Assembly: GCA_963662715.1 (NCBI GenBank)
Contig: OY759724.1
Span: 2,843,339 to 2,907,338, forward strand
Source of the DNA: Candidatus Omnitrophota bacterium
Lineage (GTDB): Bacteria > Omnitrophota > Gorgyraeia > Zapsychrales > JANLHA01
Reading direction: 5' to 3'
Length of the DNA stretch: 64,000 nucleotides
In this document: piece by piece, positions 7,212 through 27,798 of the stretch
How the letters are laid out: each line of letters starts with the position of its first letter
Position numbering within the stretch: position 1 is the stretch's first letter
Program-made: the position numbers and the translations under genes
Notes under the pieces: model-generated
The model's database searches: none
The model's input: the letters and a program-made list of their open reading frames with translations, nothing else
Told to the model about the DNA's origin: nothing

Positions 7212-8513
7212 ATGATTTTAAAACAACCGACCGTTTCCTTTTATACCCTAGGCTGCCGGGTGAATCAATCCGAGACGGCCGTTCTGCAAAATATGCTGGA
7301 AGACGACGGCTTCCGGGTCGTTGATTTTGAATCTCCGGCTCAGATTGTTGTGATCAATACCTGCACTGTTACGGCCCGGGGGGATGCTGATACAAAACGC
7401 ATGGTGAACCGGATCAGCCGAAAACACCATCAGACAAAAATTGCTTTGATCGGATGTCAGTCTCAGGTTCAGGGCGCCCGGCTGGCCTCTTTGAAAAATG
7501 TGTGCTGGATCGTTGGCACAGAAGCTAAAATGGATTTGGGAGCCATTTTGAAAAACCGGCCGCAGCCGGATTCGGGGCCGCAGGTCTTTGTTTCTCCTAT
7601 ACGCCGCAAAAAATTCACCATGCCTTCGGGAGGGGCAGACCGTCAGCATACAAGGGCCAATTTGAAAATTCAGGACGGGTGTGATTTTTTCTGTTCGTAT
7701 TGTGAAATCCCTTATGCCCGGGGCCGGCCCCGCAGCCGGGTGTATCAGGACTTGCTCAAGGCCGCCCAGAATTTGGCCGAGGCCGGGCATAAAGAGATTG
7801 TTTTAACCGGAATCAATTTGGGGTTGTACCGTGACGGGAATTATACTTTAAAGGATGTGATCGGAGATATGCAGTCCATCCCGGGACTCGCGCGGATACG
7901 GATTTCTTCCGTTGAATTCAATACGTTCCCCGACCTCTTGCTGAAACACATGTTCCCCAAAGGGAAATTATGCCGTTATCTGCATGTGCCTTTGCAAAGC
8001 GGAGAGGATGATGTTCTGCAAAGAATGAACCGGCGCTATACGACCGGAGAGTTCTCTGCCTGGCTTAAGCATGCCCGTAAACAGGTGCCGTATCTGTGTG
8101 TGGGGACAGACGTTATTGTGGGGTTCCCGGGGGAGGATGGCGATGCCTTTGATCGAACTTATGAATTTCTGAAATCCCAGCCTTTTCAATATTTTCATGT
8201 TTTCAGTTATTCGAAAAGACAGCGGGCTAAAAGCCGGAATTTCTCCGGAGAGATTCCGGCGCATACGATTCGTAAAAGGAGTGAAATCCTCCGGGCCTTA
8301 TCTCTGCAGAAAAGAAGAGCTTTCTTTGAATCGTTGGAGGGCAAGGTTGAACCGGTCCTTTTTGAAGAGGAGAAAAACGGATGCTGGTCCGGGTTGAGTG
8401 ATAATTTTGTCCGGGTAAGAGTTAAAAGCCCTTTGAACCTGAAAAATCAAATCATTCCTGTCAGGTTGGAAAAACCTGTTCAACAATATATGGTAGGGAC
8501 CATGGTCCGTTGA
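7212..8513 (+). CDS. mtaB: tRNA (t6A37) methylthiotransferase, MtaB type, with TRAM domain
   Basis: 433 aa. MTTase N-domain (FYTLGCRVNQSETAV, NTCTVT), radical SAM motif CDFFCSYC, and a C-terminal TRAM-like beta region. Confidence 0.75.
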   Translation: MILKQPTVSFYTLGCRVNQSETAVLQNMLEDDGFRVVDFESPAQIVVINTCTVTARGDADTKRMVNRISRKHHQTKIALIGCQSQVQGARLASLKNVCWIVGTEAKMDLGAILKNRPQPDSGPQVFVSPIRRKKFTMPSGGADRQHTRANLKIQDGCDFFCSYCEIPYARGRPRSRVYQDLLKAAQNLAEAGHKEIVLTGINLGLYRDGNYTLKDVIGDMQSIPGLARIRISSVEFNTFPDLLLKHMFPKGKLCRYLHVPLQSGEDDVLQRMNRRYTTGEFSAWLKHARKQVPYLCVGTDVIVGFPGEDGDAFDRTYEFLKSQPFQYFHVFSYSKRQRAKSRNFSGEIPAHTIRKRSEILRALSLQKRRAFFESLEGKVEPVLFEEEKNGCWSGLSDNFVRVRVKSPLNLKNQIIPVRLEKPVQQYMVGTMVR

Positions 8514-8537: not shown

Positions 8538-9419
8538 ATGTCAGTCTTTAATTTTTTTAAGCAAATTTTTCAAACCTCAAAGAAGACCGCCACAGGAAAA
8601 GAAGATGATCCTTTAACGGAGAACCCTGTGGCGCCTGCGGATTTGACGGGTGAGCCTAAGCCGGAAACAGCAATTTTGGAGAGTCCGGCGCAAACGGATT
8701 CCCGCGAAGAGCCTGAGGCCGTGGCTGAAACAGCCCCTTCAGCGCCAACAGGGGAATCAGCCCGGGAAGCAGCGGAAGCCTCGGCTGCCGTTGCGGATGG
8801 AGTTGAAGAAACATCAGAGGATCAAACCCCGCCGAATGAATCAAAAGAACCGGCGCCGGCGGCCCAGGAGAACGGGGAGGCCGCTCTTGAAAGCGAGCCC
8901 CAGGGGCAGGCTCCGGATACGAATCAGCCGACAGAGGCAAAAACAGATCAGGCTCCGAAAGCAGACCTTCAGCCTCCCAAACAGCTGTTGAAAAAAGTGT
9001 TCTTCCTGGGAAGCGGACACGAAAAATTGAACCACAGAATTAAAGATGAACTGAAAAAACTCGGCTTTTCTTATGTCGATTTGTCGGACAGTTACACGGA
9101 AATATCTTTGGATGAAATTACCAACTCGCATCGGGGTGTGTTTTTCAGTATTGTCACTTTATCCGGGGATGAATTCATTTACGACAAAAACGGCAAACCG
9201 GCCCAGGCTCAATTGGGGGCAAAACAGGATGTTGTTTTCAAGCTGGGCTACTTAATCGGCAAATATGGCAAAATGAACTGTTATGTCCTTTTCAAGGAAC
9301 AAAAGAGTTTTGCTCTGCCCACAAGTCTGCTGCACGGTACTTTTACGGTGCTGGATGATGATGCCCGCTGGCGGGACATTTTAAGACATCGGCTTACGGG
9401 CAGCGGTTATTCGTTATGA
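8538..9419 (+). CDS. Two-part protein: ~150 aa acidic/Pro/Ala/Glu-rich disordered N-terminal region, then a TIR-like nucleotide-binding domain (COG4271 / Cap12-PycTIR-like)
   Basis: The C-terminal ~140 aa, KKVFFLGSGHEKLNH...VFFSIVTLSGDEF...QDVVFKLGYLIGKYGKMNCYVLFKEQ, follows the KVFIVHGHD...VIFELGYFIGKLG pattern of COG4271 TIR-like domains. The N-terminal part is low-complexity. Confidence 0.5.
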   Translation: MSVFNFFKQIFQTSKKTATGKEDDPLTENPVAPADLTGEPKPETAILESPAQTDSREEPEAVAETAPSAPTGESAREAAEASAAVADGVEETSEDQTPPNESKEPAPAAQENGEAALESEPQGQAPDTNQPTEAKTDQAPKADLQPPKQLLKKVFFLGSGHEKLNHRIKDELKKLGFSYVDLSDSYTEISLDEITNSHRGVFFSIVTLSGDEFIYDKNGKPAQAQLGAKQDVVFKLGYLIGKYGKMNCYVLFKEQKSFALPTSLLHGTFTVLDDDARWRDILRHRLTGSGYSL

Positions 9420-9979
9420 TGAACAGATCTCCTTTTTATAACAATCTGGCTGTGTTTTCCTTCCTTGTTCTTACGGCGGTTTCCTTTTTGTGCTGTTGCC
9501 CCTTCCAGCTTTTTGCCGAGGATCCTTCTCCGACCAGCGTTGATCTTATCGAATGCGGGGACCGGAAACTGGCATTTAAGATGTTCTGCAATCCCCGCTG
9601 GCAGACCAGCCGAAAAACATTAAGTTTAAAACTTGTGATTGACGGGACCCCCCAGAGAGAAGTGTCTGTCACGGTTTCCAAATCCGAGGAGGTGGGGCTT
9701 TCTTATGAAGACCTGAAGCCGGTGGCCTTAAAACGGGTTTTTGAATATGCCGATGAGTTTAAATATGCCAAGACGTATGTGAATTGGAACAGGGTTATCC
9801 GGGTGGAAGCTCAGCCTCAGGGCCAGCCGGAAACATACCTGTTGGATTATTTTTTGATACGGGACAGTCAATTATACCGGATCAGTTATTCCGCCCAAAG
9901 CCGGGAGCAGTTCAGGAAATATCTGCCGTTGTTCGCTGAAATGATGCGCAGCTTTGAATTCATTAATGTCGGACGGTGA
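9416..9979 (+). CDS. Hypothetical signal-peptide/membrane-anchored protein (187 aa)
   Basis: Start overlaps the stop of the upstream TIR-like gene (ATGA). N-terminal hydrophobic segment LAVFSFLVLTAVSFLCCC. No recognisable family. Confidence 0.4.
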   Translation: MMNRSPFYNNLAVFSFLVLTAVSFLCCCPFQLFAEDPSPTSVDLIECGDRKLAFKMFCNPRWQTSRKTLSLKLVIDGTPQREVSVTVSKSEEVGLSYEDLKPVALKRVFEYADEFKYAKTYVNWNRVIRVEAQPQGQPETYLLDYFLIRDSQLYRISYSAQSREQFRKYLPLFAEMMRSFEFINVGR

Positions 9980-10055: not shown

Positions 10056-10595
10056 ATGAGAGTATCTATTTTAATACTGTTCAGTTTACTCTTGCTGGTT
10101 TTTCTTCATAACCCCGGTTATGCGGAGATGGTTCATTATTTTGACGAGAACGGGCAGATCCACTATGTGAATACGGCTGTGACCAATGTCCCGGAGAAGT
10201 ATATGAACCAGGTCCGCCCGCAACTGGAAAAGGCGAGACAGCAGGAAGGCGAAAGCAACGTCACAGAAAAAAAGGAGGAGGCTCAAAACTCCATGGATAT
10301 GGGGACAGAACTCTTTGAAGAAAGTGACGCGGCACCCGAGCCTCCTGACAGAATTGTCGTTGACGTCTTAAGAAAGGCGGACTGCAAATCCTGTCTGAAA
10401 CTGTTCTCTGTGTTGAGGCAAAGCAAGATACTTTTCCAGTCCCGTAATGTGGATATTGACCCCAGGGGGAAAGAGCTGTATGAAAAGTATCCGGATATGG
10501 AACTGCCGATTACAGTCGTGGGGGATCAAGCTGTCTCGGGGCTTGATTTTTTTAAAATCAAGCAACTTGTGCGTGAATTGAAAAATCAGCAGTAA
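10056..10595 (+). CDS. Secreted DUF4124-like protein with C-terminal glutaredoxin-like (CxxC) domain
   Basis: 179 aa. Signal peptide, then MVHYFDENGQIHYVNTAV (DUF4124-like), then CKSC...PITVVGDQAVSGLDFFKIKQL, a glutaredoxin-like fold. Confidence 0.5.
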   Translation: MRVSILILFSLLLLVFLHNPGYAEMVHYFDENGQIHYVNTAVTNVPEKYMNQVRPQLEKARQQEGESNVTEKKEEAQNSMDMGTELFEESDAAPEPPDRIVVDVLRKADCKSCLKLFSVLRQSKILFQSRNVDIDPRGKELYEKYPDMELPITVVGDQAVSGLDFFKIKQLVRELKNQQ

Positions 10596-10638: not shown

Positions 10639-11028
10639 GTGATGGGTAAGAAAACTGGTTTTACGCTAGTTGAGGTGATGATTGTTGTCGCTATCATCGC
10701 CCTTTTAGCCGTTATTGCAATTCCTAACCTTTACCGGGCAAGAGTGCAGGCCAATCAGTCAACAGCTCAGGCCCACTTGAAATCTATCGCGAATTCCCTG
10801 GAAAACTACGCAGCGATTCATAGTATTTATCCTTCGGATACAACACAACTTTTAGGCGCCAGCCCCCCGTACCTCAGCATTGACTTTTTTTCCGGATTTC
10901 ACGCCGGATACAGTTTTACCAGTCAGCTGGGAGATTATTATTATACAATTACGGCCACCCCTGCGACTTCAGGCGCTGGAACGAGCACGTATACCTTAAC
11001 GACAGGTGGCGTTATTTCTGCCATCTAA
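10639..11028 (+). CDS. Prepilin-type (type IV pilin / T2SS pseudopilin) protein
   Basis: 129 aa. N-terminus GFTLVEVMIVVAIIALLAVIAIPNL is the canonical prepilin peptidase cleavage/methylation motif plus a hydrophobic helix. Confidence 0.75.
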   Translation: MMGKKTGFTLVEVMIVVAIIALLAVIAIPNLYRARVQANQSTAQAHLKSIANSLENYAAIHSIYPSDTTQLLGASPPYLSIDFFSGFHAGYSFTSQLGDYYYTITATPATSGAGTSTYTLTTGGVISAI

Positions 11029-11424: not shown

Positions 11425-12492
11425 ATGATCGAACATTCAAAACCAACACTTGGATTAGAAGAGAAGAAAGCTGTTTTAGACACCCTTGACACAAATTATA
11501 TCGCGGAAGGGCCACAGGTCCGCTCTTTTGAGGATGAGGTTGCCGCGTATATAGGCTCCGTTGGGGGTGTAGCCACCTCCACGGGCACATTAGGTCTCCA
11601 CCTGGCGCTGCTCTGCTTTGACCTCACCCGGAAAGACGAAGTTCTTATCCCGAGTTATACTTGCCGGTCGGTTTTAAATGCCGTTTTATATTCTGGAGCC
11701 CGGCCCGTATTATGCGATGTCAATAAAGACGATTATAACTTATCTCTGACAGAGGTTAAGAATAAGATAACATCAAAAACAAAGGTGATAATCGTTCCGC
11801 ATATGTTTGGCTGTCCGGCCCCCGTGGACCGCTTCAAAGAGCTGGGGATACCCATTATTGAAGACTGCGCCCACGCTATCGGGGCGGAATATCAGGGCCG
11901 GAAAGTAGGATGTTGGGGGGACCTGGCGCTGTTTTCATTCGAGGGTACGAAGTATATCGTTACGGGCGAAGGGGGTATGGTTCAGGCCAATTCTCAGGTC
12001 ATGCTCGATAAACTTCGAAAACTAAAAGAGAGCGATTCTTTTGATTTTTTAACGAAATATACTTACCGGATGACTGATTTGCAGGCGGCCGTGGGCCGGG
12101 CTCAACTCAGGAAATTAGACGGTTTTATAGAGAAAAGAAGGTCTATCGCTGAAATCTACAATAAAGCTTTTCGGACCTTGCCCGTGACCGGCCCAGAGGA
12201 TAACTTGAAAGAGGGGCATATTTATCAGCGTTATATGATTCAAATCGGCGGGGGTATTCAGGCTTTCATGGAAAAATGCTATAAGAAAGGGATCAAGGTC
12301 AAACAGCCTGTTAAACCCTATGCGCTTCATTCGTATCTGAGGGTGTCTGCCCGGAGGTATCCTCATACGGAATATATTATGCATTCAGCCGTTTCTGTCC
12401 CCATTTATCCGTCGTTAACAGCCGAACAAACGGTTTATATAACTGAAACTTTAAGGGAACTATTAACAGAACATCATGCGAAATCCCCATAA
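11425..12492 (+). CDS. DegT/DnrJ/EryC1/StrS (ArnB-like) PLP-dependent sugar aminotransferase
   Basis: 355 aa. DegT family pattern with the putative PLP-lysine in FSFEGTKYIVTGEGGMV. N-terminal LGLEEKKAVLDTLDTNYIAEGPQVRSFEDE. Confidence 0.85.
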   Translation: MIEHSKPTLGLEEKKAVLDTLDTNYIAEGPQVRSFEDEVAAYIGSVGGVATSTGTLGLHLALLCFDLTRKDEVLIPSYTCRSVLNAVLYSGARPVLCDVNKDDYNLSLTEVKNKITSKTKVIIVPHMFGCPAPVDRFKELGIPIIEDCAHAIGAEYQGRKVGCWGDLALFSFEGTKYIVTGEGGMVQANSQVMLDKLRKLKESDSFDFLTKYTYRMTDLQAAVGRAQLRKLDGFIEKRRSIAEIYNKAFRTLPVTGPEDNLKEGHIYQRYMIQIGGGIQAFMEKCYKKGIKVKQPVKPYALHSYLRVSARRYPHTEYIMHSAVSVPIYPSLTAEQTVYITETLRELLTEHHAKSP

Positions 12493-13450
12493 CACAACTG
12501 TTTCTCACTATGGTTTTTTGACAGAAAAGGCCAAACGCTTTCCTCCGATGATTGTCGTTGAGATCACCAACGTTTGCAATCTGGAGTGCATCCATTGTCC
12601 GCATGCCTTTATATCCAAGGAGCCCGGGTACCAGCCACGCTATATGGGCTGGGCTCTTTACAAAAAAATCGTCGATGAAGTTTCGCAATATCCCGGAACG
12701 ATTTTCCGGCTGCTGTGTGACGGGGAGCCCTTATGCCATCCGCGCTTTATTGATATGCTCCGTTATGCGAAGGAGAAAAATGTCCGGCCCGTAAATTTCA
12801 TTACCAACGGTCTCCTGCTGGATTCTTCCAAGGCAGAGGCTGTTCTGCAATCCGGAGTTGAGGCTGTGGAATTCAGTCTTGATGCGCTTCACAAAGAGAC
12901 CTACGAGAAGATCCGGGTGGGATCGGATTTTGAAAAGGTTATGCATAATGTCCACCAGTTTATTGAAATGCGCGACCGGCTTAAGGCGCAGACCAAAATT
13001 TTTGTGAGCATTATCGATCAGCCGGAAGCCGAACAGGAACTGGAGGCCTTCCTCGCTTATTGGACGCCGAAGGTCGACCGTGTTCTGACGAGGATGTATA
13101 CCTCTATCCGGGGTTTGGTCGATACGAGAAAGATTAAGATCGACCCCGACCTGACCCGCTGGCCATGTCCGGATCTCTGGCGGCGTTTTTTTATCAACGT
13201 GGACGGCCTGGCGGAATTTTGTGTGGAAGACTGGTATGACCAGTCTGTTATCGGTGACGTGACCCAGGCCGGCATTCATGCTATTTGGCGGTCTCCCGCC
13301 TATGAGCGGATCAGGGGCCTGCATTTGCAGGGGAAATTTGAAGAGGTGTCTTATTGCCACCACTGTTTAGACTGGCGGGCCCGTGACTGGCATTATGATT
13401 ATTTCCTGGCCCTTAAAGAAGTTTTGAATCATGAAACAAAGACGGAGTAA
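12476..13450 (+). CDS. Radical SAM enzyme with C-terminal SPASM/twitch auxiliary-cluster domain
   Basis: 324 aa. CNLECIHC (CX3CX2C) radical SAM motif near the N-terminus. C-terminal Cys cluster (CPDLW...FCVEDW...YCHHC). Confidence 0.75.
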   Translation: MRNPHNTTVSHYGFLTEKAKRFPPMIVVEITNVCNLECIHCPHAFISKEPGYQPRYMGWALYKKIVDEVSQYPGTIFRLLCDGEPLCHPRFIDMLRYAKEKNVRPVNFITNGLLLDSSKAEAVLQSGVEAVEFSLDALHKETYEKIRVGSDFEKVMHNVHQFIEMRDRLKAQTKIFVSIIDQPEAEQELEAFLAYWTPKVDRVLTRMYTSIRGLVDTRKIKIDPDLTRWPCPDLWRRFFINVDGLAEFCVEDWYDQSVIGDVTQAGIHAIWRSPAYERIRGLHLQGKFEEVSYCHHCLDWRARDWHYDYFLALKEVLNHETKTE

Positions 13451-13452
13451 AC

Positions 13453-14841
13453 ATGGGAGCTGCGATATCCCCCAAGACAATAAGAACAACCCGGAGTGTC
13501 TGCCCCAAATGCCTTCAGACGATTGATGCCTTTATTGTGGAAAAGGATAACAAGGTTTTCATGCAGAAGACCTGTCAGCTGCACGGGTTTTTTGAGATAT
13601 TGCTCTCAGAGACAGCCCCGTATTATTCTGAACTGGAACAGTATTATTTTGACCTGGCGGACGAGCGCAACGAGGTGCCGGAATATGAGATCTGGCCGAC
13701 CTATAAATGCAACATTGATTGCTCTATTTGCTGTTTCGGGAAACAAAATCATGAGATGGAGGACCAGGACGCTTCTCTCTCCCAAATCGAACAGTTCATC
13801 AAAAACAGTTCCAAACGCTTTTTTATCCTTTCCGGGGGAGATCCGACCTGCCGGGATGACCTCGATCAGATCATAAAATTATTCCGGAAATACGGTAAAA
13901 CGGTCACGATCAACACCAACGGCCTGAAATGCGCGAGCATAAACTATCTTAAAAAACTTAAAGAGGCTGGCCTGGACCGCCTTAACCTGCAGTTTGACGG
14001 TTTTGACCGCAAGGCCTATATTGCGCTGCGGCGTCAGGACTATCTGGATGTGAAGTTGAAGGTTATTGAAAATTTGAAAACCCTCAATATCCAGACGACG
14101 TTCAACGCAACCATAGCCAAGAATCTTAATGAGAACGCCGTTAAAGATTTAATAGATTTCGCCGCAAAGCATCCGTTTATCAACGGGGTAAACTTTTTTA
14201 CGATTTGCTACCTGGGCGGCGCCAGGGACTGGGGCCCGGATAACTATATTATGCCTGATGAAATTGTCGACTTGCTGCAGCAACAGACGGATCATAAGGT
14301 CAGCAAAGAAAATGTCTTTATATTTCAGAAACTTCATCTGGCCATAAAATCCTTTTTATCCCAGAAATGGTGTTTTTACAATCAGGTTTATCTTTTTGTC
14401 CGTGACCGGGGTTCTTATCAGCCGATCGACCGGTATTTGAACCTGGCCAAAGCCGGCCCCTGGCTGGATAAGTACCGGGACGCTTTTATCAGGAAAAAGT
14501 TCTTGTCCCGTTTTTATCTTGGCATGGCGGTTGTGTGTCTGTTCCTGAAGAAAGAATCTTTGGTCATTTTTAAGGAAATCCTTTTAAGGGGGCTGTCTTA
14601 TTTCTTGAAAACCCAGCATTATCTGAAAGGCAGCCGTTTCTTTTCCGTCAGTTTTTCGACCGGGTGCGATCCGTATAAATTTGATCATGATATTGTCAAA
14701 CATTGTCAAAATGAGATTATCGCGGCTCAGGATGCGACAGGGATCCTGACGGAACTGGGGAGCGACGGAATTTACTGCATGAATTTAGAGAGAAGACATT
14801 TAAACAAAACCTTAAACCAGGAAAGGACGGCGTCCCCTTAA
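13453..14841 (+). CDS. Radical SAM protein with N-terminal Cys-rich ribbon; COG1964 / Tes-GDGT-MAS-like family (paralog 1 of 3)
   Basis: 462 aa. N-terminal CPKC...TCQLHG, then CNIDCSIC (CX3CX2C). Shares LQFDGFD and NxTIAKN motifs and a C-terminal CDPYKFD motif with its two paralogs. Confidence 0.65.
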   Translation: MGAAISPKTIRTTRSVCPKCLQTIDAFIVEKDNKVFMQKTCQLHGFFEILLSETAPYYSELEQYYFDLADERNEVPEYEIWPTYKCNIDCSICCFGKQNHEMEDQDASLSQIEQFIKNSSKRFFILSGGDPTCRDDLDQIIKLFRKYGKTVTINTNGLKCASINYLKKLKEAGLDRLNLQFDGFDRKAYIALRRQDYLDVKLKVIENLKTLNIQTTFNATIAKNLNENAVKDLIDFAAKHPFINGVNFFTICYLGGARDWGPDNYIMPDEIVDLLQQQTDHKVSKENVFIFQKLHLAIKSFLSQKWCFYNQVYLFVRDRGSYQPIDRYLNLAKAGPWLDKYRDAFIRKKFLSRFYLGMAVVCLFLKKESLVIFKEILLRGLSYFLKTQHYLKGSRFFSVSFSTGCDPYKFDHDIVKHCQNEIIAAQDATGILTELGSDGIYCMNLERRHLNKTLNQERTASP

Positions 14842-14842
14842 T

Positions 14843-16108
14843 ATGCTCAAGGCCTACCCCCGACATTCCGTGGATATTACAAAGCATGATTATAAACGGA
14901 TGCTTGCTTTTTTGTTCGCCCCCCGGTCCGTCAAAGCCGGATATCTGAAGCGGTTCGAGCAATCATTCGCCGGATATATCGGGACGCGGTTCGCTTTGTC
15001 CATGCCTTCCGCCAGGCTCGGTCTTTATGTCGTGTTGAAATATTTTAATTTCCCCGAGGGGACGGAAGTTATTATCACGCCTTTCACCCATCAGAGTATC
15101 TTCACGGTTCTCAAAACATTCCGGCTGAAGCCTGTTTTTGTTGACATAGACCCCAAGACCCATAACACCAATCCTTCTTTGGTCAAACAGTGTATCTCAG
15201 AAAAAACGCGCCTTATGGTTTTGACCCACATGTGGGGGCAGGCCTGTGATATGGACGCTTTTATGACGCTGAAAGAGGAATACGGCCTGAAAATCATTGA
15301 AGACTGCGCCATGGCGGCCGGGGCCGTTTATAAAGGCAAAAAAGTAGGCAGTTACGGAGATGCCAGCATATTTAGTTTCGGGAAGGCGAAAGCCATTTGT
15401 GCTTTCGGAGGAGGAATGTTGTGCCTGAATGACGAGAAGATGCATGAGTTTGTCGCTTCGGTCATTAAGGATTTTCAGCCGCCCCGGCCGTTTTCTCTGG
15501 TCTTTTCCGTGATCAATTCCGTGGTCGCCAATGTCCTCACCCGTCCGCGATGTTTTTTCCTGTCGCTTTATCCGGTTATGCGGCTTTTTAATCTCAGAGA
15601 CCCCTACAATCCGGTTGAGCATAAAAAGGATTCCGAAGTCATTCTGGAGCAGATGCCGGAAGAATGGAAAGTCCGGTTATCGTCTTTTCAGGCGGCCATA
15701 GGCCTTGAACAGCTTAAGACTTTGGAAGAACGCAATGACCGCAGAACCCAAAATGCCCGGATTTTGAACTATGCCTTGAAGGACGTCCCGGATATTGGTC
15801 TGCCGGAGACGTCAGAACGCGGGCAGCATATTTATCTCTACTATGCGGTTCACATAAAGAAGAAAACCGATCTGGACAATCTCCGGAAGAAACTGTTGGC
15901 GCGGGCCGTGGATACCCAGCTGAATGAATTGACGAATCCCGAGCAGTTAAGCATTTTTGGCGCGGACAGCGGGTCTTTTCCGGTCTTTGACAAGATCTCT
16001 CCCAACATTCTTGTTATTCCCAACGGAATAATGCTGAATGAGCAGGATATCCATGCGGTGGCACAGGCGGTCAGGGAATGCCTTGGGCCCGGCGGGGGTG
16101 AGATGTAA
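14843..16108 (+). CDS. DegT/DnrJ/EryC1 (ArnB-like) PLP-dependent aminotransferase
   Basis: 421 aa. DegT family pattern with the putative PLP-lysine in FSFGKAKAICAFGGGML. Confidence 0.8.
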   Translation: MLKAYPRHSVDITKHDYKRMLAFLFAPRSVKAGYLKRFEQSFAGYIGTRFALSMPSARLGLYVVLKYFNFPEGTEVIITPFTHQSIFTVLKTFRLKPVFVDIDPKTHNTNPSLVKQCISEKTRLMVLTHMWGQACDMDAFMTLKEEYGLKIIEDCAMAAGAVYKGKKVGSYGDASIFSFGKAKAICAFGGGMLCLNDEKMHEFVASVIKDFQPPRPFSLVFSVINSVVANVLTRPRCFFLSLYPVMRLFNLRDPYNPVEHKKDSEVILEQMPEEWKVRLSSFQAAIGLEQLKTLEERNDRRTQNARILNYALKDVPDIGLPETSERGQHIYLYYAVHIKKKTDLDNLRKKLLARAVDTQLNELTNPEQLSIFGADSGSFPVFDKISPNILVIPNGIMLNEQDIHAVAQAVRECLGPGGGEM

Positions 16109-16111
16109 GAT

Positions 16112-17425
16112 ATGATAAAGGATGATAAGTTCAGTCACATCGTCAGGGCGACTGAAAGCGTGTGTCCGGTTTGTCTGGACTCCGTTCAGGCATTGGTGCA
16201 AATCCGGGGGGAGTCTGTTTATCTTGAAAAGACATGTCCCCGGCACGGAGATTTCCGCGTCCTCTTATCGAAACACGCCAAAGATTATAAGGAGTTGTCG
16301 GATTGCTATTTCTATTTTATCCCGCAGGCTTTGGTGCAGAAAGAATATTACCTCTGCGCAACCATGCAGTGCAATATCTCCTGCCCGATTTGTTTTCTGG
16401 ATTACTGTCAGGACAGGCAGGACCTCTCTTTTGAACGTCTGGCAGACAACCTCCGCGATAAAACAGACGTGGAAAGATTTACTTTTTCCCATGGCGAACC
16501 GACCGTCAGTCCGCAATTACCCGATATGATCCGGGCTTTGAAACGGGCGAATAAACTGGTTAACATTCATACCAACGGCGTCAGACTGGCGGATTATGAT
16601 TATGCGCTTTCCTTGAGGAACGCCGGGCTCGACCATGTCAGCCTGCAGTTCGATGGTTTCCGGGACGAGATTTATCAGGCTCTCCGGGGGGCGCGGTTAT
16701 TGGATGTTAAATTAAAAGCTCTGGAGAACCTCAAACGTTTATCCTTGCCGGTCACTTTAAATGTCACGGTGGCCAAGGAGGTGAACGATGATGAATGCGG
16801 CCGGATCTTCGATTATGTCGTTAAAAATGATTTCATGAAAGACCTGAGTTATATCACTTATTGCCATTATTCTCCTGACGATAAGGATATGGAACGTTAT
16901 ATGATGCCCGATGATCTTTTGGTTATTCTGGAAAAACACACCCAAGGCCGGCTGCAAAGAGAAAATATCATCCATTTTCAGAAACTATATTATGCTTATC
17001 TCAGTGCGTCGCATAAGAGAAAATGCTTCAATTATTATCATTATTTTATCGTCCGGACAAAGACAGGCTATCGCGGAATCGACCAGTACCTGGATTTAAA
17101 AAAGATCGCGCGGGCCATAGACCGCTGCAAAGATCAAAAGAAGAAGATGACGCGCTGGAGGCTTTATAAAATATTGCTGACATCCTTGAAAAAATCCAGC
17201 CTGTTTTTGATCCCTTATGGGGTGTCCCTGGTGTTGAGAGGGGGATATCCCAAAAAACCGGGACGGTTCCTGGTGGTGACCTTTGCCAGTATCTGTGACC
17301 CTTATAAGTATGATGCCACGGTCGCTTTGAATTGCGGGCAGGGGATTGTGACGCAGAAAAATGAACAGGAAAGTTACGGTTCATATATTATCGAAGAAAT
17401 GAAAACTTTAAGAGTCCAGTCATGA
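16112..17425 (+). CDS. Radical SAM protein with N-terminal Cys-rich ribbon; COG1964 / Tes-GDGT-MAS-like family (paralog 2 of 3)
   Basis: 437 aa. CPVC...TCPRHG, then CNISCPIC. LQFDGFRDEIY. C-terminal ICDPYKYD. Confidence 0.65.
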   Translation: MIKDDKFSHIVRATESVCPVCLDSVQALVQIRGESVYLEKTCPRHGDFRVLLSKHAKDYKELSDCYFYFIPQALVQKEYYLCATMQCNISCPICFLDYCQDRQDLSFERLADNLRDKTDVERFTFSHGEPTVSPQLPDMIRALKRANKLVNIHTNGVRLADYDYALSLRNAGLDHVSLQFDGFRDEIYQALRGARLLDVKLKALENLKRLSLPVTLNVTVAKEVNDDECGRIFDYVVKNDFMKDLSYITYCHYSPDDKDMERYMMPDDLLVILEKHTQGRLQRENIIHFQKLYYAYLSASHKRKCFNYYHYFIVRTKTGYRGIDQYLDLKKIARAIDRCKDQKKKMTRWRLYKILLTSLKKSSLFLIPYGVSLVLRGGYPKKPGRFLVVTFASICDPYKYDATVALNCGQGIVTQKNEQESYGSYIIEEMKTLRVQS

Positions 17426-18999
17426 AAATTGCCTTTGTCAATGATTCCTGCGAACGGTTAGGCGTGGAGTACATTTCGGCCGTCCTTAAACAACACGGCC
17501 ACACCGTTAAGCTCTTCGCCGATCCCCAGCTGTTTAATGACGAAAATTTCACCATCGCTCCTTTCGCAAGGTTTTTTGACTATACGGAAGAACTTGTCGC
17601 GGATATCAAGGCGTTTCAGCCGGATTTAATCGCATTTTCCGTCGTGACCGACTTTTATCAATGGGCCTGCCGCCTGGCCAGGCGGATTAAGTCTGAGATG
17701 GATGTCCCGGTCCTTTTCGGCGGTATTCATGCCACTTCCGTACCTGAAAAAGTCCTGCAGCAGGATTGTGTCGATATGGTCTGCCGGGGGGAGGGGGAAT
17801 ACGCTCTTTTGGATCTTGTCACGAGTATGGAGCGGGGGGCGATAGATTATGCCACCCGGAATATTTGGTTTAAAAAAGACGGCCGGGTTATTAGGAATGA
17901 AGTCCGCCCGTTGATAGAGAACCTGGATGAGCTTCCTTTTGCGGACAAAGATCTTTTTTACGAAGCCAGCGCCCATTTTTCCCGGTGTTATTTCTTAATG
18001 ACCAACCGCGGGTGCGCCTATGCCTGTAGTTATTGCTGCAATTCGTTCCTTAAAAAATTTTATCAGGACAAGGGGAAATATCTGCGGTTCCGCAGCGTCT
18101 CTAACGTTATCCGGGAACTGGTATGGGCCAAGGAAAAGTACGGTATCCGCATGATCCGTATCCACGACGATGATTTCCTGACCCATGACGTCAAGTGGTT
18201 CGAAGAATTTTCCGGGCAGTATGCCGGGCGGATCAAAGCCCCGTTCGCCTGTTTTACTCATCCCAACAGCGTGACGGAACGCAAGGCCGCTCTTCTTAAG
18301 AAAGCGGGCTGTCATGATATCGAAGTGGGGGTCCAGTCCATCTCCGCCAAAACACGTTACGAGGTCTTAAACCGCCGTGTTTCCGATGAGCAGTTAAGCA
18401 AAGCCATCCGCATCTTAAAAGACGCCGGGATCAAAGTTATCACGGATAATATCCTGGGGCTCCCGCACCAAAGTGATCAGGAACTGCTGGATCTTATGAG
18501 ATTTTATAATAAAAACCGGATCATGAAGATTTACTGTTTTGGGTTCCGGCACTACCCGGCCACGGATATCGTGGAGTATTCCCGAAAAGCCTCTTTGCTG
18601 ACCCGGGAGGATGTTGAGAACCTGGAAAACGGCGTGAATGTCAAAACATTCATCCAGAGCGGGGATATCTTAAGCCGGGAAGCCAAACAGCTGCAGACTT
18701 TCTTTGCGTTTCTGCTTTATCTTCCGGAATCCTTTAACAATTTTATACTGAACAGAAAATTGTACCGTTTTTTCATTCCGTTACCGTATTATATTCTTGT
18801 TATTTTCTCCAACTGGCTGAGGATCCCGTATCGTTACAACTGGGCGTTGCACATTACGGTTTGCCGTTACGGCACATATATTTTCAGGCGTTTCAAGAGC
18901 AAGCTGCGGTTTCCCGGGATGTTTGCCCGGGGAAAAAGAACTGATTTTATTCTTAAACATCCCGTAGGGCAGGAATGCGGTTCAGGAGAGAGGGCTTGA
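17422..18999 (+). CDS. Cobalamin-binding-domain radical SAM enzyme (class B-like), tandem paralog 1
   Basis: 525 aa. N-terminal B12-binding Rossmann domain (MKIAFVNDSCERLGVEYISAVLK...FGGIHATSVPE...CRGEGEY), then radical SAM CAYACSYC. Start overlaps the upstream stop (ATGA). Confidence 0.85.
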   Translation: MKIAFVNDSCERLGVEYISAVLKQHGHTVKLFADPQLFNDENFTIAPFARFFDYTEELVADIKAFQPDLIAFSVVTDFYQWACRLARRIKSEMDVPVLFGGIHATSVPEKVLQQDCVDMVCRGEGEYALLDLVTSMERGAIDYATRNIWFKKDGRVIRNEVRPLIENLDELPFADKDLFYEASAHFSRCYFLMTNRGCAYACSYCCNSFLKKFYQDKGKYLRFRSVSNVIRELVWAKEKYGIRMIRIHDDDFLTHDVKWFEEFSGQYAGRIKAPFACFTHPNSVTERKAALLKKAGCHDIEVGVQSISAKTRYEVLNRRVSDEQLSKAIRILKDAGIKVITDNILGLPHQSDQELLDLMRFYNKNRIMKIYCFGFRHYPATDIVEYSRKASLLTREDVENLENGVNVKTFIQSGDILSREAKQLQTFFAFLLYLPESFNNFILNRKLYRFFIPLPYYILVIFSNWLRIPYRYNWALHITVCRYGTYIFRRFKSKLRFPGMFARGKRTDFILKHPVGQECGSGERA

Positions 19000-20333
19000 T
19001 GAAGACCTATTTTATAACAGCTTCGACATTCTGCATGGAAAGAATGCTGGACTGCCAGAAAATTTCCGATTACTTAAAAATGAACGGCTGGCGGCCGGTG
19101 AGGCGGATCAAGAAAGCCGGTTTGATTATTGTCAGCACATGTTCTTTCGGCCGGGAAGAAGACGATAGCTCGCTCGATTATATCCGGTTTTACCTGCGCC
19201 GGAAGTTGCCTGAAGCACAATTTTTTATCATCGGGTGCGTGCCGGCGATCAATCCCGAACAGCTTGCCTCTCTGGGCGATATCCCCACGCTTTCTCCCAC
19301 CACGTTGTCCCGGCTCGACACTTTGCTGCAGCCGTCTGTGAAATTCGCGGATGTCCCGGAGCCGAACAAGATTCTTGCCGCGGAGGTCATGCACAGCGTT
19401 TTTTTGAAAAAAGCTCTCTGGCTCCGGTCCTACGTGCGGCAGGCCTTGAAGGATGTCCCGCCCGGCCCGGCGGTTCTGAGAAAAGGGGGGCAAGCGCTGA
19501 AAACCGGGATCAAGTACTTTCCGGTGCTGAAATCACACATTAATCCTTTCCTCTCCTGCAACCGGAACGGATTTTATTATCTGCGGATTTCCAAAGGGTG
19601 TCTGGGGAGCTGCAGCTACTGTGCCAAGAGACATTCTACCGGGCGGCTCAGGAGCAAACCGGATGATATGATCGTTCAGGAGTTTCAAAAAGGATTGCAA
19701 GCCGGGGAGAAAAGGTTCTACCTCTTAACGGAAGACGTCGGGTGCTACGGAATTGATCAGGAAACGACTGTCATGGCTCTGCTGAAAAGGATATTTGCTG
19801 TGGGGCATGCCCAGGAATTCCGGATTGTTGTTTCCAATTTTAACGCCCGCTGGTTTGTCAAGTATTATGACGAACTGGAAGAGCTCTTTGTGAAATATCA
19901 GACCAAAATTCTTTATGTGCAGATTCCGATCCAATCCGGGAGTACGCGGATTTTAGGGCTGATGGACCGGCATTATACGGCGGAAGACCTGAAAGAAAAA
20001 CTGCTGGCTTTAAGGCGCAAGGCCCCGGCGCTTAACCTAACGACAGACATGATTGCCGGTTTTCCCGGAGAAACCGATGAGGATTTTGAATTAACCAAGC
20101 AGTTCGTCTCTGAAATCCGGTTTCAGCATATTGATATTTTTGGATATGAACACCGGCCCAACACCCGGGCGGGGGCCCTGACGGGGCAGCTTTCCCAGGA
20201 AGTGATAGACCAAAGGGTTTTCGAACTCGCCCGATGGCAGAATAAATATTCCCAAACAAGGACTGTCATCGGCAAATTGATCGAGGTGGCCAAGGAAAAT
20301 GCGCAGCGGTACCGGACGAATTCAAGACAATAA
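18999..20333 (+). CDS. MiaB/RimO-family methylthiotransferase-like radical SAM protein with no evident TRAM domain
   Basis: MTTase N-domain cysteines (TFCMER...STCSF...GCVPA) and radical SAM motif CLGSCSYC. The C-terminus is short with no TRAM beta-barrel. Start chosen as MKTYFITAS at 18999, which overlaps the upstream stop by 1 nt (TGATG). An in-frame ATG also exists at 18975. Confidence 0.65.
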   Translation: MKTYFITASTFCMERMLDCQKISDYLKMNGWRPVRRIKKAGLIIVSTCSFGREEDDSSLDYIRFYLRRKLPEAQFFIIGCVPAINPEQLASLGDIPTLSPTTLSRLDTLLQPSVKFADVPEPNKILAAEVMHSVFLKKALWLRSYVRQALKDVPPGPAVLRKGGQALKTGIKYFPVLKSHINPFLSCNRNGFYYLRISKGCLGSCSYCAKRHSTGRLRSKPDDMIVQEFQKGLQAGEKRFYLLTEDVGCYGIDQETTVMALLKRIFAVGHAQEFRIVVSNFNARWFVKYYDELEELFVKYQTKILYVQIPIQSGSTRILGLMDRHYTAEDLKEKLLALRRKAPALNLTTDMIAGFPGETDEDFELTKQFVSEIRFQHIDIFGYEHRPNTRAGALTGQLSQEVIDQRVFELARWQNKYSQTRTVIGKLIEVAKENAQRYRTNSRQ

Positions 20334-20335
20334 AC

Positions 20336-21844
20336 ATGATGAAGAAAAAAGGTTTGAAAATTGCTTTTGTCAATGATTCCTGCGAGCATTTAGGGGTTGA
20401 GTATATATCAGCCGTCTTGAAGGCCGCAGGCCATCAGACGCAACTGTTTGTCGACCCCTTGTTATTTGATGATGAATTTATTACGGTCAAAGCCCTAAGC
20501 AAGTGTTTTGATTATAAAACGAAAATTATCAAGGAATTAAAAAGTTACGGGCCTGACCTTATCACCATGTCGGTTGTCTCCAGTTTTTATCCCTGGGCTT
20601 CCGGTATGGCGCGTTTAATCAAACAGGAGATTCCTGTTCCCGTCATTATGGGCGGCGCTCATCCCACGGCTGTCCCGGAGAGGGTCATTCAGAATGAGTT
20701 TGTTGATATGGTCTGTGTCGGAGAAGGGGAGTATTCTATGCTGGAGCTGGCCAACAGCATGGCGGCGGGCAAGGTCGATACCACTATTAAGAATATCTGG
20801 TTTAAACAAGACGGACGGATCATACGCAATGAGCTGCGGCCCCTTATCGATAACCTGGATGAGCTTCCCATGCCGGATAAGGAGCTTTACTATTCCGCCA
20901 GCCCGCATTTTTCCCAAAGCTATTATATTACCGCCAGCCGGGGGTGTCCTTATGCCTGCAGTTATTGCTGCAACTCTTACCTGCGGTCCCTGTATAAAGG
21001 GCTGGGGCCTTATCGTCGTCAGCGCAGCCCAGGTCATGTGATCGGGGAATTGGTCGAGGCGAAAAAACGCTTTGCCATTGATCCGGTTTTCTTCCTGGAT
21101 GACTGCTTTGCCTACGATCTTCAGTGGCTTAAAGAGTTTGCCCCGGCCTACCGGAAGCAGGTCGGCATAAGATTTTATTGTATGATGTTCCCTGACGATA
21201 AAATGGAGGAAGCCTTAAAATATCTGAAATTAGCCGGATGCGGAGAGATTGAAATCGGGGTGCAGTCCTGGGATGAAGATGTCCGGCGGAATATTTTTCA
21301 CCGCCGTGTTTCAAACGAGACGATGATCCGGACGATGAAGCTTATTAAAAAAGAGAATATCAATCTGGTGACCGGAGATATTCTGGGCTACCCGGGACAA
21401 AGAGAAGAGCATATCCTGAAGGCCGCGCATATTTATACGGAGATAAAACCCAGCCGGACCTATTCTTTTATCCTGAAATATTTCCCCAAAACACAGATCA
21501 CGGAAGAGGCGGTTAAAAAGGGCCAGCTAAAAGGTGAGGATGTGGAAAAGATCCTGGACGGGCATTACGGGAAATATCTGTCGAAAGACGGGAGCATGAC
21601 GGAAAAAGAGGTGATGCAGTATCTGTTCCTTTTCCTGCTTGTGCGCATCCTGCCCGTCCGGATGGCGCGGGCTGTTATCCGTAAACGTCTCTACCGGAAA
21701 TTTCCGGTGGTTCTTACGCCGGCCGCCATCTCCATTTTGAACAATTTTTCGACATCCACTTTTGAATCTAAAATTAACCGGCGAAGCGCATGGCACCGGT
21801 ATATTTATTTTTTAAAGAAGATGTTCTTTAAAGGCAAACGATGA
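20336..21844 (+). CDS. Cobalamin-binding-domain radical SAM enzyme (class B-like), tandem paralog 2
   Basis: 502 aa. KIAFVNDSCEHLGVEYISAVLK. CPYACSYC. Confidence 0.85.
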   Translation: MMKKKGLKIAFVNDSCEHLGVEYISAVLKAAGHQTQLFVDPLLFDDEFITVKALSKCFDYKTKIIKELKSYGPDLITMSVVSSFYPWASGMARLIKQEIPVPVIMGGAHPTAVPERVIQNEFVDMVCVGEGEYSMLELANSMAAGKVDTTIKNIWFKQDGRIIRNELRPLIDNLDELPMPDKELYYSASPHFSQSYYITASRGCPYACSYCCNSYLRSLYKGLGPYRRQRSPGHVIGELVEAKKRFAIDPVFFLDDCFAYDLQWLKEFAPAYRKQVGIRFYCMMFPDDKMEEALKYLKLAGCGEIEIGVQSWDEDVRRNIFHRRVSNETMIRTMKLIKKENINLVTGDILGYPGQREEHILKAAHIYTEIKPSRTYSFILKYFPKTQITEEAVKKGQLKGEDVEKILDGHYGKYLSKDGSMTEKEVMQYLFLFLLVRILPVRMARAVIRKRLYRKFPVVLTPAAISILNNFSTSTFESKINRRSAWHRYIYFLKKMFFKGKR

Positions 21845-23337
21845 AAATCGCATTTATCAATGATTCCGCTCAGCAGCTGGGCATTCAGTACATGTCCGCT
21901 GTGCTGAAACAGCACGGCCATGATGTGAGGCTGTTTATGGACCCCCAGCTGTTTGCTGACGATGTTATACAGATCAAAAGGCTCAACCGCCTGCTTGACA
22001 TGAGAAAAGACATCGTCCGGCGGGTCAAGGACTATGCTCCGGATCTGGTCGGCATATCCGTTGTCACTGATTTTTATCAATGGGCCAGCCAGATAGCCCG
22101 GATGATCAAGGATGAAATGGATGTCCCTATCATTGCCGGAGGCATCCATCCGACCTCGGTTCCGGAACGGGTCCTGCAGGATGAATGCTTTGACATGGTG
22201 TGCCTGGGGGAGGGGGAATTTCCGCTTTTGGAATTAGCCGACAGCATGCAAAGAGGAAAAATGGACACCTCCATCCCGAATATCTGGTTTAAAGAAAACG
22301 GCCGGATCATTAAAAATGAACTCCGGCCGCTTCTTGAAGACCTTGACGCTTTGCCGCTGCCGGACACGGACTTGTATTATTCCGTCAGCCCTCATTTTAG
22401 AAGGACCGGGTTGTATATTACGATGACGTCCCGCGGCTGTCCGAATGCCTGCAGTTACTGCTGTTTCTCCTATCTGCAGGACCTGTATAAAGGCAAGGGC
22501 AAACGGATCAGGCAGCGCAGCGTTCAAAATGTGATTGAAGAGTTGAGAATCAATAAGGCAAAATATAAAATAAAGTTTATCGCGTTTATGGATAACTGTT
22601 TCGGGTATGATGTGAAATGGCTCAGGGAATTCACCCCGGTTTACCGTTCGGAAATCGGCATAAAGTTCTGGTGCATCATGCACCCCAAAGACGTTACAGA
22701 AGAAACCCTCCGGCACCTCAAACAGGCCGGATGCCATACCATTGACATGGGCGTGCAGTCCTGGAACGAGGATATACGAAAAGAAGTCCTTCACCGGGAT
22801 GTCGATAACGATACGATGGCCCGGGCTATTCAGATCGTTAAGGATGCCGGGATCGAAATTATGACCGACAGCATTTTTGACCTGCCCGGGCAGACAGAAG
22901 AGGATGTCCTGGAAAGCGCCCGGAGATACGTTGAGATCAGGCCGAAGCGGATATATTTTTACATGTTACGGCATTATCCGAACACCCTCATAACCCGGTT
23001 GGCCAAACAAGATCAGCGGCTTGCGCCGGCCAGGTATGAAGAAGTGATGAGCGGGGTGAATGTCACGTCCTTTACGGTCGGCGGAGACCAGGTCAACCAG
23101 AGAATGATTCAGTTCCAAATCCTGTTTTATTTGATTGATCTGATCCCCAAAAGCATAAGCCGGTATATCATTCGCAAAAGACTTTATCGGTATTTCCCTG
23201 TGGCTTTGGGGCCGGCTATTATTGTCATCCTGCGCAATCTTTTGGCTTTTGATATGAATGCGCGGCTTCAACGCGCCTGGGCTTTTAATCGCTACGCCTA
23301 TTTTATCTGGCAGAAATTAAAACCTTTAAAGAAATAA
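21841..23337 (+). CDS. Cobalamin-binding-domain radical SAM enzyme (class B-like), tandem paralog 3
   Basis: 498 aa. MKIAFINDSAQQLGIQYMSAVLK. CPNACSYC. ATGA overlap with the upstream gene. Confidence 0.85.
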   Translation: MKIAFINDSAQQLGIQYMSAVLKQHGHDVRLFMDPQLFADDVIQIKRLNRLLDMRKDIVRRVKDYAPDLVGISVVTDFYQWASQIARMIKDEMDVPIIAGGIHPTSVPERVLQDECFDMVCLGEGEFPLLELADSMQRGKMDTSIPNIWFKENGRIIKNELRPLLEDLDALPLPDTDLYYSVSPHFRRTGLYITMTSRGCPNACSYCCFSYLQDLYKGKGKRIRQRSVQNVIEELRINKAKYKIKFIAFMDNCFGYDVKWLREFTPVYRSEIGIKFWCIMHPKDVTEETLRHLKQAGCHTIDMGVQSWNEDIRKEVLHRDVDNDTMARAIQIVKDAGIEIMTDSIFDLPGQTEEDVLESARRYVEIRPKRIYFYMLRHYPNTLITRLAKQDQRLAPARYEEVMSGVNVTSFTVGGDQVNQRMIQFQILFYLIDLIPKSISRYIIRKRLYRYFPVALGPAIIVILRNLLAFDMNARLQRAWAFNRYAYFIWQKLKPLKK

Positions 23338-23352
23338 GCGGACTGGCAAATC

Positions 23353-26206: not shown

Positions 26207-26239
26207 TGCGAAACGTTTTTTATTACCGAGCGGGGTACG

Positions 26240-27760: not shown

Positions 27761-27798
27761 AGAAATGTTGGCCTTTTGAAAAGAAAGTTTCTGCATCC

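Follow-up and report, generated by a model that had tools for sequence, protein, structure and literature searches.

A PF10137 TIR-like protein with a degenerate active site, encoded next to mtaB in Omnitrophota

We analysed a stretch of 64,000 nt from a Candidatus Omnitrophota bacterium, here called the window, and within it a gene for a TIR-like protein that directly follows mtaB. The gene is open reading frame (ORF) 8538..9419 on the + strand. The ORF list of the window gives it 293 aa, in agreement with an earlier sequence-only reading, which suggested that the product could be a pared-down toxin of NADase type, or a signalling module, that has a membrane partner. The gene begins 24 nt past the stop codon of mtaB, with an AAGGA Shine-Dalgarno-like element just 5' of its start. 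The protein is laid out in three parts:

8538..8594, + strand: conserved N-terminal amphipathic helix MSVFNFFKQIFQ (residues 1-19)
8595..8987, + strand: acidic, intrinsically disordered linker rich in A, E, P and T (residues 20-150, 131 aa)
8988..9419, + strand: PF10137 TIR-like domain with a degenerate active site (residues 151-293)

The last of these is the globular part of the protein, and scans with Pfam, NCBIfam and PADLOC models found no domain in it or in the rest of the protein other than PF10137.

The TIR-like domain and its active site

The Pfam model PF10137 (CAP12/Pycsar effector TIR domain, CAP12-PCTIR_TIR) matches residues 154-262 with 42 bits, compared to a gathering score of 24.7 (E 1.1e-10), and the match spans positions 2-107 of the 119 in the hidden Markov model (HMM). 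When the six closest orthologs were compared by hhalign with 15 canonical members that carry the catalytic Glu, the two groups matched over 148 columns with a probability of 99.6% (E 1.8e-24), and the only natural relatives by sequence in the PDB are Cap12 and TIR-STING. On the strength of these three results the TIR-like assignment stands, as the sequence-only reading had proposed for residues ~150-293, and we take residues ~151-293 to be a genuine PF10137 (Cap12/PycTIR-type) TIR-like domain on the evidence of these profiles. An assignment to flavodoxin or CheY was considered and rejected, given that there is no such Pfam or NCBIfam match at E <= 1 and that the homology to PF10137 is strong. 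An AlphaFold2 (AF2) model of the full protein, made from a 6-sequence alignment, is unreliable (pLDDT, the predicted local distance difference test, 45); the order of its secondary-structure elements is beta-alpha alternating, as the TIR fold expects.

The window protein shares the PF10137 domain with Cap12/TIR-STING (SfSTING, PDB 7UN8; 9LMQ) and with PycTIR, and the blocks that can be aligned are beta1 'VF(I/F)xG', 'LS/LTxDD(F)', 'Q(N/D)VxF-x-LG' and 'LPT/PSD'. In other respects it differs from these NADase effectors of CBASS and Pycsar systems: it has no fused STING, SAVED or cNMP sensor, there is no CD-NTase/cyclase operon, and its gene belongs to a housekeeping operon and not to a defence island. 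It scores a negligible 15 bits with the Cap12 equivalog models, whose cutoff is 450.

In SfSTING, E84 is a highly conserved catalytic residue, and the pocket is made up of F6, W33, F37 and L47, of the polar, NAD-contacting residues S10, R78 and N80, of E84 itself, and of D110 contributed by the dimer mate (PMC9402430). We aligned the window protein to the 7un8 chain, in which the numbering is the native numbering plus 8. E84, at the start of helix alpha-C, corresponds to K235, and the trans-acting D110, which comes from the DD loop, corresponds to S263; N80 is replaced by D231, R78 by K229 and S10 by G160, and F6 is F156. The motif in the window reads DVVFKLGYLIGK, that is, VVFKLGY and not the V(I/V)FELGY given in the sequence-only reading, and the diagnostic Glu is Lys235 (codon AAG at 9240-9242). 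The codon of Ser263 is at 9324-9326. The same picture comes from comparing the canonical profile with the window protein block by block: IVHGHDEE becomes FLGSGHEK, with the HGH of the first beta-alpha loop replaced by G158-S159-G160, SPDD becomes SGDEF, RQNVIFELGY becomes KQDVVFKLGY, and MPSD becomes LPTS. K235 and S263 are invariant in the clade of the window protein, and the structural residues S209, D211, F213, Q230, F234, G237, P261 and W278 are fixed or nearly so. As aligned, the domain keeps its structural core and is without the residues that make TIR domains N-glycosidases, namely the catalytic Glu, the trans Asp, the HGH loop, and the pocket Arg and Asn. With all of these lost, the TIR-like protein is most likely not an NADase toxin or a signal generator. 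The sequence-only reading had said that it would be refuted by an unrelated Rossmann-like family without a TIR-like catalytic glutamate; the family turned out to be PF10137 after all, and the glutamate is missing.

To place this loss among relatives, we searched exhaustively with an HMM profile of the domain and obtained 1106 representatives at E <= 1e-3, the best 154 of which were aligned for residue states. At the E84 position, these best 154 of 1106 have E in 100 cases, K in 16, Q in 10, H in 9, D in 8, A in 5, G and L in 2 each, and M and N in 1 each, and the states other than Glu cluster among the nearest relatives. The pair of Glu (E84) and Asp (D110) is present in 0/9 of the relatives ranked 1-9, 2/21 of those ranked 10-30, 4/30 of those ranked 31-60, 21/40 of those ranked 61-100, and 32/54 of those ranked 101-154. 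At the D110 position, the nine nearest relatives have S (7), A (1) or G (1), and D is found in 59 of the 94 most distant. In a neighbour-joining tree rooted on canonical members, the Glu has been replaced many times independently within the clade of relatives linked to mtaB: K arises several times, there is an H clade, and A, D, G, Q, L and M also occur.

The domain itself is well conserved: over the six closest orthologs, its columns are on average 86% identical. Among close orthologs it is 66-69% identical, which is comparable to MtaB (~60%) and DusB (~67%), and the reading frame of the gene is intact in 14/14 distinct loci. Repeated loss of the Glu in a conserved domain is what one would expect if selection no longer acted on catalysis by this residue and still acted on the domain. 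These observations bear directly on the idea that the gene is a decaying relic of an enzyme, functionless and carried along by its operon. The lost catalytic residues and the extremely variable N-terminal region are what such a relic might look like, but its domain would not be expected to be as conserved as the neighbouring core genes, or to hold its 86% identity in six orthologs that have linkers too different to align, and neither the intact frames nor the conserved N-terminal helix described below fit with decay. We find this explanation hardly credible.

Gene neighbourhood and exported proteins

The genes that flank the TIR-like gene on the same strand are as follows:

7212..8513, + strand: mtaB, tRNA t6A37 methylthiotransferase (TIGR01579 381.9 bits, cutoff 357; Pfam UPF0004 and Radical_SAM)
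9416..9979, + strand: p187, secreted signal-peptide protein of 187 aa with a predicted PsbP/Mog1/DcrB-like fold (ATGA overlap with the TIR-like gene)
10056..10595, + strand: p179, signal-peptide protein whose C-terminal domain is weakly glutaredoxin-like (synteny kept in most orthologous loci)
10639..11028, + strand: prepilin-type (GFxxxE, N-methylation) pilin or pseudopilin (TIGR02532 30.6 bits, cutoff 16.3)

The order on the plus strand is thus mtaB, TIR-like gene, p187, p179 and pilin gene, and the upstream genes on the minus strand are ilvBN (acetolactate synthase), gshB, gshA and dusB, so the housekeeping setting beside mtaB that had been described from the sequence holds. In the loci that we fetched, tblastn recovered a conserved block consisting of dusB on the minus strand followed by mtaB, the TIR-like gene, p187, p179 and the pilin gene. 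Immediately upstream of the TIR-like gene, mtaB is found in 14/14 distinct Omnitrophota loci, and the adjacency is kept in divergent relatives that still bear the Glu (P0015, P0027). It is also kept in a locus (L016) with wholly different downstream genes, encoding DUF4914, a carbonic anhydrase and a PhdYeFM/ParE pair, and it is intact in three loci (L010, L013 and L016) where ~2 kb has been inserted between dusB and mtaB. The PhdYeFM/ParE pair (L016:8661-9186) lies ~2.7 kb downstream of the mtaB/TIR-like pair and is the sole defence or addiction-type module near any member.

The named source genomes of the loci are all Candidatus Omnitrophota metagenome-assembled genomes, with a few bins labelled 'uncultured Planctomycetales'; this taxonomic breadth is that of a limited number of loci, and a search with a 12-sequence alignment gave 8 genome loci. 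No terminator-like site was found on the + strand in the intergenic gaps from mtaB through the pilin gene, and mtaB and the TIR-like gene are probably co-transcribed. The Pfam, NCBIfam and PADLOC scans found no cyclase, sensor, nuclease or other defence gene in the window neighbourhood, and in this the sequence-only reading was right. A search of phage sequences gave no matches to the TIR-like protein, and the best plasmid matches are canonical relatives at ~28% identity. Fixed synteny with mtaB, no phage matches and only distant plasmid matches together are typical of a core gene passed on vertically and not of a gene in a defence island.

The persistence of mtaB as a neighbour could also mean that the TIR-like protein is an enzyme with altered chemistry, that is, a nucleotide or nucleoside N-glycosidase, or a binding factor, linked to MtaB. 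It might, for example, remove or sequester 5'-deoxyadenosine or S-adenosylhomocysteine (SAH), which are by-products of radical S-adenosylmethionine (radical-SAM) enzymes, by means of D211/E212 (in SGDEF) or Lys235. The adjacency is the most persistent feature of these loci (14/14), surviving both the change downstream in L016 and the insertions between dusB and mtaB. Three residues, D211, Q230 and W278, do not vary across the family, E212 is conserved within the window's clade, and the TIR/nucleoside 2-deoxyribosyltransferase-like superfamily is one of N-glycosidases. On the other hand, close relatives have K, H, A, G, D, Q, L or M at position 235, and this variability disfavours a conserved catalytic role there. 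To our knowledge, no PF10137 enzyme lacking the Glu has been described. The adjacency may reflect only insertion into a stable operon and retention there, and the mtaB product in the window is full length, C-terminal region included, and requires no known accessory protein. We consider an altered, MtaB-linked chemistry unlikely, and it is the main rival to the interpretation developed below.

The stop/start overlap (ATGA) between the TIR-like gene and the 187 aa signal-peptide ORF at 9416..9979 is present as described, although the small membrane protein that had been read there turned out to be a signal peptide followed by what is predicted to be a soluble PsbP-like domain. The N-terminus of p187 is a hydrophobic helix followed by an A-x-A-type cleavage site. 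There is no Pfam match to p187, and none of its 12 homologs is annotated by Pfam; they have in common a signal peptide and two invariant cysteines, C47 and C58. We considered whether p187 could be a lipoprotein and rejected this, as a conserved lipobox is lacking and the cleavage sites in the orthologs are of A-x-A type. Its AF2 model has a mean pLDDT of 85, and in a Foldseek search of the PDB the top match was PsbP (E 5e-6, probability 1.00, template modelling score 0.56-0.69), followed by Mog1, EagT6, Tsi3, LpqN and DcrB. All 30 matches at E <= 1e-3 belong to the PsbP/Mog1 fold class. The likeness of p187 to PsbP, Mog1, DcrB and LpqN lies in the predicted fold and in being secreted or periplasmic, as DcrB and LpqN are; it differs in having only 10-17% identity to them and in belonging to a lineage-specific family with a conserved Cys pair. 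On the model, p187 is a soluble periplasmic protein of PsbP/Mog1 fold, not an integral membrane effector.

In the 13 loci with downstream sequence, p187 follows the TIR-like gene in nine and is missing in four (L010, L011, L014, L016), and scanning metagenomes with the p187 alignment gave no more than 3 close orthologs. The two-gene cassette that the sequence-only reading suggested looking for in other genomes is therefore found in 9/13 loci, compared to 14/14 for the pairing with mtaB. A protein without a signal peptide and a partner that is across the membrane from it, and is absent from four loci, are unlikely to form a dedicated cassette of TIR-like protein and membrane partner.

For p179, the glutaredoxin-like matches are below cutoff (TIGR02196 GlrX_YruB, 29 bits; Pfam Glutaredoxin, 17.5 bits). 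Encoded beside the Cys-pair protein p187 and the pilin, it may have a thioredoxin fold and be periplasmic. The pilin gene is the last of the conserved block, its product matches PilA, GspG and ComGC models at the N-terminus, and 11/13 other distinct loci with downstream sequence carry it, at 47-89% identity.

Beyond the pilin gene, positions 11425-29409 of the window hold a very dense cluster of radical-SAM genes on the + strand, with ORFs of similar size continuing to ~58.8 kb. The cluster includes two DegT/PseC-like aminotransferases, a SPASM-type radical-SAM protein, a Tes/TrsS-like radical-SAM protein (156-178 bits, below cutoff), at least five paralogous B12-binding radical-SAM genes (~500 aa), two radical-SAM genes with an HMPTM zinc ribbon, and one with UPF0004 and radical-SAM domains. 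Orthologous loci also have radical-SAM genes past the pilin gene.

With the neighbourhood described, the proposal of a minimal NADase-type TIR toxin, or a signal-generating immune module, with a small membrane protein as its partner or effector can be weighed as a whole. Membership in PF10137, best PADLOC matches to the defence candidate PDC-S35 at E 8e-13, and translational coupling to a protein whose N-terminal segment is hydrophobic all favour it. However, the TIR-like protein is without the catalytic Glu and the trans Asp (K235 and S263) and without the HGH loop, its gene has no cyclase, sensor or defence gene nearby, and throughout a phylum that gene keeps its place in a housekeeping operon. 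The supposed partner p187 would be soluble, periplasmic, on the opposite side of the membrane, and it is lacking from 4/13 loci. The PDC-S35 match covers the TIR half only (46.7 bits, compared to 237-272 for full-length members), and PDC systems are themselves only candidates. Lost catalytic residues, fixed synteny with mtaB and a periplasmic p187 speak against the toxin or signalling module of the sequence-only reading, and we judge it very unlikely.

N-terminal helix and acidic linker

Residues 1-19 (MSVFNFFKQIFQTSKKTAT) are basic and rich in Phe, and M1, F6, F7 and K8 are unchanged across the six orthologs. The best hydrophobic moment over 11 residues is 0.66, a value attained by 0.15% of shuffles of the same 14 residues, and AF2 places a helix at residues 4-12 with low confidence. 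Comparable N-terminal helices occur in distant relatives whose N-termini are otherwise unrelated, namely L006 (MPLSKILSWLLS), L011 (MSNFAKKLFKKFGRK), P0024 and P0038. We infer that this is a membrane-targeting or docking helix that would mediate peripheral membrane binding, by analogy with SepF, FtsY and MreB, which have N-terminal amphipathic membrane-targeting helices. What these proteins have in common with the window protein is the order of their parts: first a short N-terminal helix that is amphipathic and has many F, L and K residues, next a linker that is disordered and in many cases acidic, and last a globular binding domain. They are not homologous to the window protein in sequence, and their globular domains are unrelated to its own.

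The linker (residues 20-150) is 18% A, 17% E, 14.5% P and 8% T, with a hydrophobic fraction of 0.08 and a net charge of -23. In the AF2 model of the full protein, with its overall pLDDT of 45, the linker has no secondary structure, and no tandem repeats were found in it at the DNA level. Composition and the absence of predicted structure both agree with the long acidic disordered region that had been called from the sequence. Linkers cannot be aligned between orthologs; what is retained is the low-complexity composition of the N-terminal region, which in near relatives is typically hydrophilic and rich in D, E and P. Its length ranges from a few residues (P0030, P0036, P0063, and L014 with ~154 aa in total) to ~600 aa (L011, ~750 aa in total), so that linker length in the mtaB-linked TIR-like family spans more than 100-fold. 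The longest of these, at L011:3552-5807, is a syntenic ortholog in which the amphipathic helix MSNFAKKLFKKFGRK is followed by ~600 aa of low-complexity sequence that is extremely acidic and by a Glu-bearing TIR-like domain. A short, conserved hydrophobic motif, CLQY(I/L)SFG(K/N)Y(Y/F)FV, is located just before the TIR-like domain in L011, P0018 and P0021 and is not in the window protein.

Base composition in this region of the window is unremarkable except for a GC peak at the linker, which is due to Ala, Pro and Glu codons. Within this GC-rich DNA there are two alternative-frame ORFs, 8650..8991 on the + strand (113 aa) and 8656..8940 on the - strand (94 aa). We rejected both as genes because the orthologs keep only the annotated frame open, with a conserved N-terminus. 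Since it is the annotated frame alone that is conserved, these ORFs are most likely by-products of the biased composition.

Origin and possible roles of the TIR-like protein

The closest TIR-like subtype is PDC-S35, a single-gene phage defence candidate in PADLOC, whose five models are the top PADLOC matches of the window protein. The best match (E 8e-13, 46.7 bits) covers model positions 100-256 only, that is, the TIR half, compared to 237-272 bits over positions 1-262 for full-length PDC-S35 members. It was from full-length PDC-S35 matches that the canonical profile in the hhalign comparison was built. Relatives that are linked to mtaB and have kept the Glu score 92-122 bits, and the window's clade scores ~47 bits. 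From this gradient and the match to the TIR half only, the Omnitrophota clade looks like a divergent offshoot of a PDC-S35-type domain. Differences from PDC-S35 are that the N-terminal helical domain (~100 aa) is replaced by the amphipathic helix and acidic linker, and that the window's clade lacks the catalytic residues and has a fixed context. PDC systems are candidates from 'guilt-by-embedding', with no demonstrated defence activity (10.1101/2024.01.29.577857). The embedding in defence systems that defines such candidates does not apply here, where the operon is a housekeeping one in the window and in all orthologous loci. Canonical PDC-S35-type relatives were found on contigs of 1.5-3.3 kb, and mtaB is not upstream of them, within the narrow context that such short contigs give. 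We found nothing in the literature on PDC-S35 by name, nor on TIR domains of Omnitrophota.

The helical N-terminal domain is kept in P0027 and in one locus with tandem TIR-like paralogs after mtaB (L013:5146-6591 and L013:7231-8103), in which the first paralog has a PDC-S35-like helical N-terminal domain and a long linker; other members have a linker inserted or a linker alone. The first L013 paralog looks like an intermediate architecture.

One could argue from this ancestry that the gene is a retained defence gene with a non-enzymatic part to play, as a sensor, decoy or oligomerising scaffold in an abortive-infection system that resembles PDC-S35 and has come to be fixed beside mtaB. PDC-S35 is indeed the closest subtype, P0027 and the first L013 paralog have the Glu as well as the helical domain, and canonical relatives are on plasmids. 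Yet stable synteny and vertical inheritance are atypical for defence genes, the window protein is without the PDC-S35 N-terminal domain and no effector is encoded nearby, and PDC-S35 has itself no demonstrated defence activity. We think a retained defence role quite unlikely.

We put at about even the chance that the window gene encodes a lineage-specific, domesticated and catalytically degenerate TIR-like protein, probably membrane-tethered, which acts by binding and not by cleaving NAD and is co-expressed with MtaB. In such a protein, the N-terminal helix would hold the molecule at the membrane, on its cytoplasmic side, with the acidic linker as a flexible spacer. The globular domain would bind a putative ligand (a nucleotide) or a protein partner, or would self-associate through the alpha-C surface, and the protein would be expressed from one operon with MtaB and the three exported proteins. 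There is a precedent for a non-enzymatic role in the TIR domains of animal TLR and MyD88 adaptors, where the TIR fold acts via protein-protein assembly; these belong to another TIR sequence family (PF01582 / PF13676), and the comparison is an analogy only.

Several observations weigh against this interpretation. Members of other Omnitrophota lineages (L010, L011, L013, L014, P0015 and P0027) still bear the Glu, and the ancestor of the mtaB-linked syntenic group may have been an enzyme, with function differing between sub-clades. The invariant D211, Q230 and W278, with E212 conserved in the window's clade, make an altered active site possible. The pocket geometry was derived from sequence alignment alone, with the domain model at pLDDT 45, and several relatives are without the N-terminal helix.

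As to how such a protein could have come about, we suggest, as a possible if doubtful scenario, that a domain of the PDC-S35 lineage was captured after mtaB in an ancestor of the Omnitrophota and domesticated into a core factor. It would have lost its N-terminal domain and its NADase chemistry, the Glu repeatedly, and gained the membrane-targeting helix and the acidic, entropic linker, so variable in length, and would now be an accessory or nucleotide-handling partner of MtaB or a membrane-tethered scaffold.

PF10137 domains are usually read as immune effectors that degrade NAD, and annotation pipelines label this gene 'TIR domain-containing' or a defence candidate. In this uncultured phylum we see a whole PF10137 clade that is fixed in a housekeeping position, has lost the Glu repeatedly, and has gained disordered stretches that may be tethers, which is a caution that defence systems should not be called from the domain alone. 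The strict linkage to mtaB is an unexplained lead. If the interpretation is true, the gene would exemplify how an immune TIR domain has been put to housekeeping use in bacteria.

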